DNA from: Limisphaerales bacterium
GTDB taxonomy: Bacteria > Verrucomicrobiota > Verrucomicrobiia > Limisphaerales > AAA164-E04
Assembly (NCBI GenBank): GCA_965204945.1
Contig: OZ242022.1
Location: 3,629,788 to 3,693,787, forward strand
Length of the DNA stretch: 64,000 nucleotides
Direction: 5' to 3'
Shown: piece after piece, positions 2,790 to 6,731 of the stretch
Layout: every line of letters starts with the position of its first letter
Position numbering within the stretch: the first letter of the stretch is position 1
The notes under the pieces: generated by a model
What the model saw: the letters and a program-made list of their open reading frames with translations, nothing else
Databases searched by the model: none
Told to the model about the DNA's origin: nothing
Translations under genes and position numbers: made by a program

Positions 2790-3803
2790 ATGTCTTTGAA
2801 GATTCCGAATCGTCCGTTGCGTCTTGCGACTCGGGGTTCTGCTTTGGCGCTTGCTCAGGCGCATTGGGTTCGGGGTTGTTTGCAAAGTTTGCTGCCGGGT
2901 TTGCGGGTTGAGGTTCGGGTTTTTAAGACGGAGGGAGATTGGTTGCAAGGCAAGGCGCAAAATGAAATTTCCGTTTCTCTTCCCAAAGGCTTGTTCACGA
3001 AAGAGTTGGAGAACACTCTTTTGGAAGGCGAAGCGGATTTGGCCGTTCATAGTCTCAAGGATTTGCCAATTGATCTGCCGGACGGTCTTTGTCTTGCGGC
3101 GGTTGCGCCGCGGGAAGATGCGCGGGATGTGTTGCTTACTAATCGGCCGATTGCGGCGGATGGCAATCCGTTGTGTTCTTTGCCGCCGGGCGCCGCCGTT
3201 GGGACGGGAAGTTCGCGGCGGCGGGCTTTTCTTTTGGCGGCGGGATTGAAGTTGCGAGTGGTGTCTTTACGGGGCAATGTGCCGACGAGAATTCGCAAGC
3301 TGGCGGATTCTTCGGATTTAGACGGCATTCTCCTTGCCGCTGCCGGCTTGGAGCGTTTGGGTTACGTTTTGCGAGAAGATCAAGCCGTTGAAGGCAAGGG
3401 CGTTCCGCCAAACATTTTTGCCGCGCTTTTGCCCGTGAGGCATGTCGTTCCCTGCGCCGCACAAGGCGCCGTTGGATTGGAAGCCCGCTTGGAAGATTCG
3501 GCAACGCAGTCTATTTGTCGGCTTTTCAACGACGTTGATTCTCAAATCTGCGTGGAGGCCGAGCGGAGGTTTTTGCAAGCAATGGGCGGCGGTTGCCAAT
3601 CGCCTTTGGCCGCTTATGGTCAACTTGTAGAATCTTCGCTTCGCCTGATGGTTGCCAAGCCGTTGGGCGGAGGCATCAAAATCCTGGAAGGAACAGCTGG
3701 ACGGAATGAAGGAGAGAGGCTGGCTATGGAACTTGCGGCCAAGATGCAATCCGCTTCGCAGGGAGAAACCACAAAAGAGGCTCGGTTGCCTTCAAAATTG
3801 TGA
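2790..3803 (+). CDS. hemC: Hydroxymethylbilane synthase (porphobilinogen deaminase)
   Basis: Motifs LATRGSALALAQA, KGLFTKELE, AVHSLKD, GTGSSRR, LRGNVPTR, GGGCQSP. Start at ATG 2790 preferred over GTG 2757. Confidence 0.97.
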   Translation: MSLKIPNRPLRLATRGSALALAQAHWVRGCLQSLLPGLRVEVRVFKTEGDWLQGKAQNEISVSLPKGLFTKELENTLLEGEADLAVHSLKDLPIDLPDGLCLAAVAPREDARDVLLTNRPIAADGNPLCSLPPGAAVGTGSSRRRAFLLAAGLKLRVVSLRGNVPTRIRKLADSSDLDGILLAAAGLERLGYVLREDQAVEGKGVPPNIFAALLPVRHVVPCAAQGAVGLEARLEDSATQSICRLFNDVDSQICVEAERRFLQAMGGGCQSPLAAYGQLVESSLRLMVAKPLGGGIKILEGTAGRNEGERLAMELAAKMQSASQGETTKEARLPSKL

Positions 3804-3895
3804 TTGTCTTGGCGGGGAAATTCAGGCATAATTTCAAATTCTTGACCTGCGAAGAAAAATCAGGTTCAATGCTCGTCCGGAACCAAGAATTTTTT

Positions 3896-5194
3896 ATGAA
3901 GCCGATTGCAAACATTCTTAAAACTTGTCTGGCCGTCGCACTGGCCAACTCCCTCGCTCTCGCCGCTGAAAACGACGACGCCATCGCCAAGATCAAAGAA
4001 TTTGGCGGCCAAGTTTTGGGCATTGCTCAAAATACGGAAGGCGTCCGAGTCTTGATCCCGCCGAAAACTTTCGAGGGGCGCGTTCTGACGGACGACGACT
4101 TGGCCGTCTTGAAAGACCTAAATCCAGTGATCGAACTGGACTTGAAGAACGCCGGCATTACGGACGCCGGCCTGAAACACCTTTCGCCATTGACCCAGCT
4201 GGAACGGTTGCACTTGGAAAAAACCAAAGTGACCGACGCCGGACTGGTCGATCTCAAAGGATTGACCAAGCTCAAGTATCTCAATCTTTACGGCACCGGA
4301 GTTAGCGACGCCGGCTTGGAACATTTAAAAGGACTCGGCGACCTTCGGAATCTCTACCTCTGGCAAACGAAGGTCACCTTCGAGGCCGCTCAAAAGTTCC
4401 ATGAAGCGGCCGCGGCCGCCGGCAACGAAAACCTGGAAATCAATCTTGGATGGGAAAAAGAGATTCTCAGCAAAACCCGCCTCGCCGCGCTCAAGGCGCA
4501 ACGCGAAAAACTGGAAACCGAAGCCGACAAAACGGATCCGGCCAAAGTGGCCGTCGTGGAGGATCCAGACTTCAAAACCCATATTTTGCCGATCTTCCAA
4601 AACCACTGCGTGCAGTGCCACGGCGAAGAAAAGCAAAAAGAAGCGCTTCGCTTGGACAGCTACGAGTATGCCGTGAAAGGAAGCGAACACGGGGCGGTCG
4701 TCGTGGCGGAGGACTTGATCGAAAGCACGCTTTTCCAACGAATTACTCTGCCCAAAGACGACGACGACATCATGCCGCCCAAAGACGGACCGCTCTCGAA
4801 AGACGAAATCGCCCTGATTAAAAACTGGATCGCCAACGGAGCGAAGGCCGAAGCGGAAGTCAAACCGGCCGCGGCGCCAAAGATTGCCGAGAAAAAACCA
4901 GAGGGGAGCAGTGTGTTTGTCGAATACGTCCTTCCCATTTTCCAATCCACCTGCGTCGATTGCCACGGCGAAGAAAAACAAAAGGCCGGCCTGAGACTGG
5001 ATTCCATCGCCGCCGTTCTCAAAGGAGGCAAAGAAGGCGCCGTAGTCGCCGCCGGCAAACCCGAAGAAAGTCCTCTGTATCAGAGAATCATCCTTCCTAA
5101 AGACGACGACGACATCATGCCGCCGAAGGGCGATCCCTTGAACAAAGCGCAGACCGACTTGATCAAACTCTGGATCGCCAGCGGAGCCAAGTAA
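3896..5194 (+). CDS. Secreted LRR plus two planctomycete-type c-type cytochrome domains
   Basis: Signal peptide; RI-like LRRs (LHLEKTKVTDAGL, LNLYGTGVSDAGL); two CxxCH sites (CVQCH, CVDCH), each followed by LRLDS...MPPK. Confidence 0.9.
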   Translation: MKPIANILKTCLAVALANSLALAAENDDAIAKIKEFGGQVLGIAQNTEGVRVLIPPKTFEGRVLTDDDLAVLKDLNPVIELDLKNAGITDAGLKHLSPLTQLERLHLEKTKVTDAGLVDLKGLTKLKYLNLYGTGVSDAGLEHLKGLGDLRNLYLWQTKVTFEAAQKFHEAAAAAGNENLEINLGWEKEILSKTRLAALKAQREKLETEADKTDPAKVAVVEDPDFKTHILPIFQNHCVQCHGEEKQKEALRLDSYEYAVKGSEHGAVVVAEDLIESTLFQRITLPKDDDDIMPPKDGPLSKDEIALIKNWIANGAKAEAEVKPAAAPKIAEKKPEGSSVFVEYVLPIFQSTCVDCHGEEKQKAGLRLDSIAAVLKGGKEGAVVAAGKPEESPLYQRIILPKDDDDIMPPKGDPLNKAQTDLIKLWIASGAK

Positions 5195-5333: not shown

Positions 5334-5768
5334 ATGAAAACACATCTGCCAAAAATTGACGTTCAAAAACGCGTGTGGCACGTCATTGACGCCGACGGCC
5401 TCGTTCTCGGCCGCTTGGCAGCCAAAATCGCCAACGTTCTGCGCGGGAAAAACAAACCCGTTTTTACGCCTCATTTGGACGCCGGAGACTTCGTCGTCGT
5501 CGTGAACGCTGAAAAAGTCAAACTGACCGGAAACAAAAACGAACAAAAGATTTACTCCTCCTACTCCGGCTGGCGAGGCGGCCAAAAACGCCGAACCGTT
5601 AAAGACTTGCGGGCCAAGCACCCCGACAGAATCATCACTCACGCCGTCAAAGGAATGATTCCCAAAAACCGACTGGGAAAGAGGCTGCTGACCAAACTTA
5701 AAGTTTACGCGGGACCCAAACACCCCCATGCCGCTCAACATCCCTCTCCGCTGACGCTAAACATATAA
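5334..5768 (+). CDS. rplM: 50S ribosomal protein L13
   Basis: WHVIDADGLVLGRLAAKIA, FTPHLDAGDFVVVVNAEKV, KLKVYAGPKHPHAAQ. Confidence 0.98.
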   Translation: MKTHLPKIDVQKRVWHVIDADGLVLGRLAAKIANVLRGKNKPVFTPHLDAGDFVVVVNAEKVKLTGNKNEQKIYSSYSGWRGGQKRRTVKDLRAKHPDRIITHAVKGMIPKNRLGKRLLTKLKVYAGPKHPHAAQHPSPLTLNI

Positions 5769-5783
5769 AAGAAGAATCTTTCT

Positions 5784-6731
5784 ATGGAATCAGAAAAACC
5801 AATCATCCGCCTTCAAACAGGCCAAAAAGATCATCTCCAAATCGTTCCCTCCTGCGGGGATAATGTTCCTATCGGCATGCTCTCTCTCCAAGAAACGCAA
5901 GCTCTCGACCTTTGGCAAGATGCCGGAATCCACCTTTGGTTGAGGCAGCCTCTCGAAAACGGCCGCCATTTGATCGGCGAGATAAACAAACAAGGCGATG
6001 CCGCTTCAAGCCATCCAGAATACAGAGAATTACCCGAAGGCAAGCAACCTTTTGCGGACAATCCCAACTATCAAGGAGGCATTCGCTTTGATTCCGTGAA
6101 ATCCGCAGTCCAATATCTGACGCGCTACTTTGCAGTGGAATTATGCCCTCCCCTATCTTGGAAAGACCTTGGTTTAGAGATGCCCGCCTACCTTTCCTCT
6201 ACATCCCTCCATTTAGAAAATCCGGCGGAGACTCCAGCCCAAACCCAACCCGAAGAAGAAAAAATCGAAGATTCTACACCGTTGCCTCGCGCAAAGGAAC
6301 AAGAATCGGAAGAGCCGGAAGAAAACCAGCGGGTATTGTCCTTGACGAGCGAACATACAGCCACCGGTCGCCGCAAAACCGCTGTGGCTCAAGTTCGAAT
6401 TGCCTCCGGCGATGGAAAAATCACCGTCAACGGCCGGGCTTTTGAGAATTACTTCCCCCTAAAAGCCCATCAAAAAATCGCCATTCATCCACTCTATCTA
6501 GTCAATGTTTCCGAGCATCTCGACGTCTGCATCAAAGTTCGAGGCGGCGGCCTCTCCGGCCAAGCCGAGGCAACTCGACACGGCATTTCCCGCGCTTTGC
6601 TTAAGATTGACGCCGACTTACGCCCTCGCCTTAAGTCCGAAGGCTTGCTCACCCGCGACCCACGCATGAAAGAGCGCAAAAAATACGGACAACCCGGCGC
6701 CCGGCGCCGCTTCCAATACAGCAAACGATAA
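5784..6731 (+). CDS. rpsI: 30S ribosomal protein S9 with ~186-aa N-terminal extension
   Basis: C-terminal ~129 aa are canonical S9 (TGRRKTAVA, GGGLSGQAEA, LLTRDPRMKERKKYG, RRRFQYSKR); frame is open from ATG 15 bp after the rplM stop. Confidence 0.93.
   Translation: MESEKPIIRLQTGQKDHLQIVPSCGDNVPIGMLSLQETQALDLWQDAGIHLWLRQPLENGRHLIGEINKQGDAASSHPEYRELPEGKQPFADNPNYQGGIRFDSVKSAVQYLTRYFAVELCPPLSWKDLGLEMPAYLSSTSLHLENPAETPAQTQPEEEKIEDSTPLPRAKEQESEEPEENQRVLSLTSEHTATGRRKTAVAQVRIASGDGKITVNGRAFENYFPLKAHQKIAIHPLYLVNVSEHLDVCIKVRGGGLSGQAEATRHGISRALLKIDADLRPRLKSEGLLTRDPRMKERKKYGQPGARRRFQYSKR

Follow-up and report, generated by a model that had tools for sequence, protein, structure and literature searches.

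All coordinates given here are positions in the window, by which we mean the whole stretch of 64,000 nt from a Limisphaerales bacterium (contig OZ242022.1) that was analyzed. The genes and features that concern us are the following:

5334..5768, + strand: rplM (uL13), directly upstream of the fused rpsI; Pfam PF00572, E = 5.3e-46; stop codon TAA at 5766-5768
5784..6731, + strand: fused rpsI, 315 aa, consisting of N-domain, linker and uS9, from open reading frame and translation; sole S9 gene of the genome
5784..6188, + strand: N-domain, residues 1-135, predicted to be folded (AlphaFold2 pLDDT 88, pTM 0.83); member of an undescribed domain family
5901..5927, + strand: loop insertion ALDLWQDAG, residues 40-48, specific to the S9-fused clade, in which L43, W44 and G48 are invariant
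6189..6335, + strand: acidic linker, residues 136-184, rich in Pro, Glu, Ser, Thr and Gln
6336..6338, + strand: TTG (Leu185) at the site of the ancestral rpsI ATG, from the junction alignment with eight non-fusion relatives
6336..6731, + strand: complete ancestral uS9, residues 185-315 plus stop; Pfam S9 match at 6366-6728

The start of rplM was set at MKTHLPK by comparison with relatives. Exactly 15 nt separate its stop codon from the ATG of the fused rpsI, which is the first start of its frame; the stop-to-stop frame is longer by only 5 codons. A first-pass annotation, made from the letters alone, had described a single open frame beginning with an ATG 15 bp after rplM, and both its coordinates and its description proved correct in light of the frame itself and the PF00572 and PF00380 matches. 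The same annotation had put the extra part at ~186 aa and the beginning of S9 at about 6342. The length was close, but the addition comes to 184 aa, and the ancestral start is the TTG at 6336-6338, two codons earlier.

The C-terminal part is a complete uS9. PF00380 (Ribosomal_S9) aligns with residues 195-315 over model positions 1-121 of 121 (E = 2.7e-47, 160.6 bits against a cut-off of 22.5), and NF001099 (30S ribosomal protein S9) scores 174.8 bits against a cut-off of 112. The tail RRRFQYSKR is invariant among all 17 fused homologues; in ribosome structures the basic C-terminal tail of uS9, ending in YSKR, reaches the P-site tRNA. Compared with S9 of the non-fusion species of the genus, the uS9 part is 70-76% identical. 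The fusion thereby shows the features that mark a uS9: the full profile, the YSKR tail, the position in the rplM-rpsI operon and the single copy. What precedes the uS9 is of opposite charge: the N-domain has a pI of 5.1 and a net charge of -6, against a pI of 11 and a net charge of +17 for the S9 core. The annotation had expected about 130 globular residues followed by an acidic Pro/Glu linker; the confident model of residues 1-135 and the net charge of -10 over residues 136-190 agree with this picture. An Rfam search around the operon returned no match.

Distribution of the fusion

Searching 5.8 billion proteins, we found the same full-length architecture in 16 other protein clusters, at 60-95% identity and with lengths of 282-329 aa. 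These clusters stem from ENA, Logan and NCBI assemblies, and two metagenome contigs with the fusion were read. Within the genus, which named relatives place in Verrucomicrobiota, 4 of the 11 species genomes carry it, namely the window genome (G000), G009, G005 and G006, each held in 1-3 contigs. The length of uS9 in relatives, a check suggested at the outset, divides the genus accordingly: the other seven species have an ordinary S9, as does every sampled genome of the family and order with an S9 match. Because each of the four carriers has exactly one PF00380 locus, the fusion is their sole S9 gene. The gene order around it (PSCyt/LRR protein, rplM, fused rpsI, GntR regulator, ABC transporter) is identical in G005, and each half of this order recurs on a metagenome contig.

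That an assembly error, a frameshift or a mistaken gene call has joined two genes is therefore next to inconceivable: the open frame is shared by four genomes, each in 1-3 contigs, and by independent ENA, Logan and NCBI assemblies, and the linkers differ in length yet always stay in frame. The assembly error that the first-pass annotation had named as a possible undoing of the fusion fails for the same reason, with independent genome assemblies and metagenome contigs all carrying it. Long frames at the S9 locus also occur elsewhere in the order (G025, G023, G036 and G033). These encode an ordinary S9 and only appear long because the frames were read from stop to stop, through the overlap with rplM.

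Specifically, the linker ranges from ~22 aa in G006 to 67 aa in G005, counted to three residues before TGRRK. Between the window linker (6189-6335) and that of G005 (L003), the length differs by a 12-14-aa block, AESPTQPQSAEEK, which resembles a tandem copy of the adjoining QPEEEKxE unit and suggests that the linker may grow and shrink by slippage.

Some further observations concern the surroundings of the gene and other unusual S9 proteins. The gene upstream of rplM (3800-5194, + strand), which is syntenic in all relatives examined, encodes an LRR region and then two near-identical repeats of the form ILPIFQxxCxxCHGEEKQKxxLRLDS...DDDDIMPPK; the Pfam note on the homologue in L116 describes such repeats as haem-binding-like modules of the PSCyt1 type. 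Two metagenome proteins of 265-269 aa (P0020 and P0021) apparently have two tandem S9 domains, with TGRRKT...GGG...GISRAL appearing twice per polypeptide, which would be an internal duplication of uS9. Many proteins of 200-290 aa (e.g., P0027, P0034, P0038 and P0041) carry both PF00572 (L13) and PF00380 (S9), and these may be either true fusions or gene calls that read through overlapping rplM and rpsI.

Selection and the ancestral start codon

Pairwise dN/dS values over the four genomes were 0.14-0.24 for the N-domain, 0.12-0.38 for the S9 core and 0.3-0.6 for the linker, which also has indels and evolves fast. By these estimates, purifying selection on the N-domain is as strong as on the S9 core. 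In the comparisons with G006, dS is ~1.0-1.1 for the N-domain and 0.65-0.82 for the S9 core, and these comparable values indicate that the two are of similar age. The fused architecture is far beyond chance, since the same architecture is found in 16 clusters and three other genomes and the N-domain has a dN/dS of only 0.14-0.24. Because the N-domain is under purifying selection, the upstream part is evidently translated, and this disposes of the possibility, raised in the first-pass annotation, that translation begins at S9 and leaves the region before it untranslated; G006 moreover has no canonical in-frame start between domain and S9.

The junction can be aligned codon by codon. In eight non-fusion relatives it reads ATG-S-D-T-S-E-H-I-A-TGRRK and in the fused genes TTG-S-L-T-G-E-H-T-A-TGRRK, with CTC in place of TTG in G009 and CCA at the corresponding position in G006. 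The entire ancestral S9 is thus retained in the fusions, while the ancestral ATG was replaced in every fused lineage, by TTG, CTC or CCA. No in-frame ATG, GTG or TTG occurs in G006 within 44 codons of the S9 core, and hence S9 would be made there only as the fusion. At the third codon position, the GC content is 0.49 in the N-domain and 0.47 in the linker, compared with 0.61 in rplM and 0.58 in the S9 core; the sample is small, but the low values are consistent with the N-domain and linker being foreign or under weaker codon selection.

The N-domain and its family

Given a 29-sequence family alignment, AlphaFold2 modelled the N-domain with a pLDDT of 88 and a pTM of 0.83. The predicted topology has strands at residues 7-12, 17-21, 31-34 and 48-54, a helix at 63-69, strands at 80-82 and 96-102, a helix at 105-113 and a final strand at 117-120. 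The model of the full-length fusion was poor (pLDDT 44.6), yet it contained the same N-domain elements. No profile of Pfam, NCBIfam, PHROGs or PADLOC matched residues 1-185 above threshold, and the only sub-threshold lines for the N-terminal part were TilS_C (E = 0.06) and phrog_18758 (E = 0.066). Foldseek, run with the N-domain model, found no match in the PDB (best E = 1.1) or in BFVD (best E = 0.21), with query-normalised TM-scores of at most 0.32.

Several identities were considered and set aside. Profile searches of PDB sequences brought up the SH2 domains of RasGAP and GRB2, with E-values of 0.002-0.2 only, among matches to antibody VH domains driven by the resemblance of 'YLIGEI' to 'EWIGEI'. 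These SH2 and VH matches rest on one short motif and are spurious, as Foldseek gave no SH2 or Ig match. A Cys/His protease or a single Zn(Cys)4 site is unlikely because the cysteines were lost pairwise and independently and none is universal. Descent from a copied host domain was rejected, as neither G000 nor the other genomes of the genus contain a paralogue.

A profile built from the N-domains of the fused clade matched 36 proteins at E ≤ 1e-3 among 1.84 billion representative proteins. Four of these are unrelated repeat proteins; the others align along the whole domain, and the best non-repeat matches have E-values of 2.7e-15 to 4.7e-11. In the opposite direction, a profile of 26 free members only was compared with the 46,712 frames of the home genome and found a single match, the S9 fusion, at E = 2.4e-25. 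This reciprocal single match makes the homology secure. Judged from these profiles, the N-domain is a member of a rare, undescribed family absent from Pfam, NCBIfam, PHROGs and PADLOC. The first-pass annotation did not recognize the domain, but behind it stands a real family, characterized by the blocks YLKIV-x-CG, N-x-GMIC, H-x-WLK, RYLIGEI, AGGxF, PGY, C-x-GG-x-NYQGG and YLKxYFxVxxC. The family is rare and patchy: of 401 genomes of the phylum, 2 have it, and within the genus every copy found is the S9 fusion.

The free members (P0123-P0157 and P0158-P0166) come in three architectures: stand-alone proteins of 107-136 aa, C-terminal domains of diverse larger proteins, and domains N-terminal to a shared module of ~200 aa with GIY-YIG-like motifs. 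An OGG-like domain, PF21790, is fused to the family domain in P0131, P0138 and P0157 (weakly in P0139) and is encoded near it in L102 (weakly in L106). PF21790 is reported to be the C-terminal domain of END antiphage nucleases, whose target is hypermodified phage DNA (PMC12191111), and serves there as the sensor of modified DNA. The GIY-YIG-like module is fused to the domain in P0136, P0141, P0151 and P0156 and forms an adjacent gene in G348; it was assigned by motifs, and searches of Pfam, NCBIfam and PDB sequences gave no confirming match. In the G348 locus (L098, contig C79, 1474-2428, - strand), a 156-aa ORF with the motifs GVYIV...LYIGSSGK...R...LE...N immediately precedes a stand-alone member of 99 aa. 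Yet another partner is the 'MPCC...KLDCLRTYYGFQL' module, which is fused to the domain in P0127, P0145 and P0155 and is an adjacent gene in L100. There (1275-2710, + strand) the module, of ~350 aa, reads MPCCHIP...LAQKLINIFIKYExCWQV...LCALHAPIDRIL...RPWSKLDCLRTYYGFQL...CAC and is encoded by an upstream gene that overlaps the domain gene. Searches of Pfam, NCBIfam and PDB sequences gave no identification of this module or of the N-terminal region of P0143. In freshwater metagenomes, PAS and LuxR-type regulators and 74-aa ORFs recur in the neighbourhoods of free members, and the GC content of free-member loci is 38-59%. The patchy distribution and these neighbourhoods suggest a horizontally moving, mobile-looking family. 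In the window, neither the OGG-like domain nor any other partner of the family was found near the fused rpsI.

The copies fused to S9 differ from the rest of the family in several respects. Throughout the family, the cysteines co-vary as two separate pairs: C24/C121 is present as two cysteines in 23 members and absent altogether in 5, with 1 mismatch, and the corresponding numbers for C34/C90 are 21, 6 and 2. The clade of the window has no C34/C90 pair (S34 and F90 instead), and G006 keeps both pairs. Of the family motifs, the window copy has kept C24/C121, LIGEI, NYQGG and YLxRYFAVELC; missing are C34/C90 and AGGxF, which reads QGDAA, and the AGGxF loop is missing from all fused copies. The three fused copies analyzed are acidic (pI 5.1-5.4) and free members mostly basic (pI 8-9.5). 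The insertion columns with L43, W44 and G48 are gaps in 85-100% of the free members and invariant in the 17 fused sequences. Further invariants of the fused clade, which the free members do not show, are R54, P56, H62, Q70, E79, E82, Q88, P94 and K106, some of which fall within its polar run H77-P-E-Y-R-E-L-P84. Taken together, the alignments show a directed divergence from the family after capture.

Origin of the fusion

As the first-pass annotation saw it, the N-terminal part was either a lineage-specific domain or a gene inserted in frame between rplM and rpsI. Each description holds: the fusion is found in 4 of 11 genomes of the genus, in none of the other sampled genomes of the family and order, and the domain in 2 of 401 genomes of the phylum, and the ancestral rpsI is complete, with its old start position still recognizable. 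The two alternatives are thus supported as parts of one story. The absence of a paralogue in the genus, the 2 of 401 genomes in the phylum and the GC3 of 0.49, as against 0.58-0.61 in the flanking ribosomal genes, together fit a foreign origin of the domain. In the simplest history, a stand-alone domain gene from this rare, horizontally moving family would have landed once in the rplM-rpsI spacer, in the ancestor of one subclade; it would then have lost its stop codon, so as to read through the former spacer into rpsI, and the rpsI ATG would have been replaced.

A tree of L13 and S9 (274 columns) groups G000, G009 and G005 with support values of 99/99. The placement of G006 is not settled, and the non-carrier G004 falls beside the main clade with support values of 89/87. 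A single gain of the fusion is possible on this tree, and in G004 the domain could have been lost secondarily. In G006, the N-domain, S9 and L13 have diverged to a similar degree, which fits vertical co-inheritance. As for G004 itself (L011), it has a GC-rich 3.3-Mb genome and a long branch; its S9 starts three codons later (MAEYTA...) than that of the other non-fusion relatives, and its rpsI begins before the rplM frame has ended. Along with the position in the tree, this could mark such a loss.

Possible role on the ribosome

From the gene content of the carriers, their only uS9 is shown to be a predicted polypeptide of 282-329 aa in which the N-domain is followed by an acidic, disordered linker and then by uS9. 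Going by what is known of the family, the intact uS9 part is expected to take its usual place in the 30S head and to extend its C-terminal tail to the P site. At the other end, the N-terminus of uS9 faces the solvent above the mRNA exit side, and its known position leads us to expect the domain to be displayed on the 30S head, outside the small subunit, on a leash of 22-67 residues that could reach ~70-200 Å from the uS9 N-terminus. The acidic linker may hold the domain off the rRNA surface. The domain itself would have been re-tooled after capture: from mildly basic it became acidic, it lost the glycine loop and, in most lineages, one cysteine pair, and it gained the insertion and the polar motif. 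Taken as a whole, the best explanation is a captured gene that became an obligate fusion and now serves as a tethered module on the 30S head, to which we assign a probability of roughly 60%.

What such a module would do is a more tentative matter. Our favoured suggestion, for which we would put the odds somewhat below even, is that it binds or docks a protein or a small ligand while tethered to the ribosome, and is not a general RNA binder. The grounds for this are its charge, its pattern of conservation and its geometry; against it, the sole identified partner of the family, PF21790, points to DNA and not to ribosomes. It is a long shot that the domain, coming from a conflict- or defence-type family, constitutes a ribosome-integrated sensor, decoy or immunity module, which may for example mimic or occupy what invaders bearing the domain would target, or switch translation on binding a signal. 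If this were true, a core ribosomal protein would have absorbed a piece of the arms race of mobile elements.

The alternatives to a tethered module differ in what they take the N-domain to be for. It may be there for nothing: an insertion, whether selfish or accidental, that was caught in an essential gene and is selected merely to stay folded and harmless. The source family is indeed sporadic and mobile-looking, the glycine loop and one cysteine pair were lost after capture, and the non-carrier species of the genus do well without the domain. However, over a dS of ~1 the dN/dS of the N-domain equals that of the S9 core, many of its invariant residues are polar and of surface type, and it has a conserved clade-specific insertion. 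A deletion restoring the old start would also be easy, yet the domain has been kept in at least 17 sequence clusters, and we regard a functionless passenger as unlikely. The invariant polar residues bear equally on the idea that the extension is an in-cis escort or chaperone that neutralises the basic S9 during synthesis and assembly and is later cleaved off, like ubiquitin on eS31 and eL40. The charges nearly compensate (about -16 for domain and linker versus +17 for S9), a disordered linker would be open to proteases, and globular N-terminal fusions on small basic ribosomal proteins have a eukaryotic precedent. But clade-specific invariant polar residues suggest a specific surface rather than bulk charge, the extension of G006 carries a charge of only about -9, the linker, which evolves fast, shows no obvious conserved motif for cleavage, and Foldseek found no match to a ubiquitin-like fold. 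Since S9 is made without any such aid in the relatives and in almost all bacteria, we think an escort function quite improbable.

The remaining alternative is that there are two products, with most S9 of the main clade made from an internal TTG or GTG (residues 183-187) and the fusion being a minor or regulatory product, or with the N-domain acting off the ribosome. Suitable codons do exist: in G000, G005 and both metagenome contigs, the ancestral start position itself is occupied by TTG, a GTG lies one codon upstream of this position in G009, G005 and L116, and in the main clade GGAGG is found 11 nt upstream of that GTG. From the retained TTG or GTG and this GGAGG-like stretch, some free S9 could be made in the main clade. 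Because the eight non-fusion relatives have no SD before rpsI, though, the GGAGG probably reflects nothing but Glu codons (GAG GAA). The strong ATG has been replaced in every lineage, by CTC in G009, and G006 is left without a canonical start over 44 codons. The site furthermore lies ~550 nt inside an actively translated ORF, and with no intervening stop, translation from 5784 must still give the fusion. We therefore consider it rather unlikely that internal initiation supplies most of the S9, and prefer the obligate fusion with a tethered domain.

Comparison with known systems

To our knowledge, it is very rare for a core bacterial ribosomal protein to gain a folded domain, and the known additions to bacterial uS9 are short disordered tails. 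A search of the literature turned up no bacterial uS9 with a folded foreign domain. The fused rpsI, as the sole uS9 gene of several free-living species and with a conserved, selected and structurally unmatched domain, would represent a natural case of ribosome customisation. It also offers a dated example of how a foreign gene can join an essential protein, by spacer insertion, loss of a stop codon and erosion of the downstream start. Finally, it reveals a domain family that is itself undescribed, that has a confident model but no counterpart in the PDB or BFVD, and that travels with OGG-like and other modules.

The closest bacterial parallels are the uS9 tails of actinobacteria. In Cutibacterium acnes, uS9 has an N-terminal extension of 46 aa, which lies on the solvent side of the 30S head, over the mRNA exit site, and proved flexible in cryo-EM; the extension in Mycobacterium smegmatis is 23 aa shorter (PMC10085706). 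These are likewise lineage-specific additions at the same end of the same protein, but they are disordered tails of 20-50 residues, whereas 184 residues were added here, including a folded domain of 135 residues of foreign origin. Long N-terminal extensions are also found on the organellar uS9m and uS9c; they arose during the remodelling of organelle ribosomes and pack on other added proteins. As in those cases, uS9 appears to tolerate large N-terminal additions that make new features on the surface of the head, but the present one occurs in a free-living bacterium, with the domain on a leash and traceable to an identifiable mobile domain family.

A small globular domain fused in frame to the N-terminus of a small basic ribosomal protein is familiar from ubiquitin-eS31, ubiquitin-eL40 and FUBI-eS30. 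The uS9 fusion resembles these in having an N-terminal globular domain and in being the sole gene copy. It differs in its bacterial origin, in the lack of a beta-grasp match by Foldseek and in having no Gly-Gly at the boundary between domain and linker. The domain itself compares most closely with the free members of its family, among whose partners is PF21790; with them it shares homology over the whole domain, the C24/C121 pair, the LIGEI helix, the NYQGG loop and the YLxxYFxV strand. The free members are mostly basic, have both cysteine pairs and the AGGxF loop, and stand beside or are fused to DNA-enzyme-like modules. The S9 copy, by contrast, is acidic, has no AGGxF loop and mostly lacks one cysteine pair, and its partner is a ribosomal protein.
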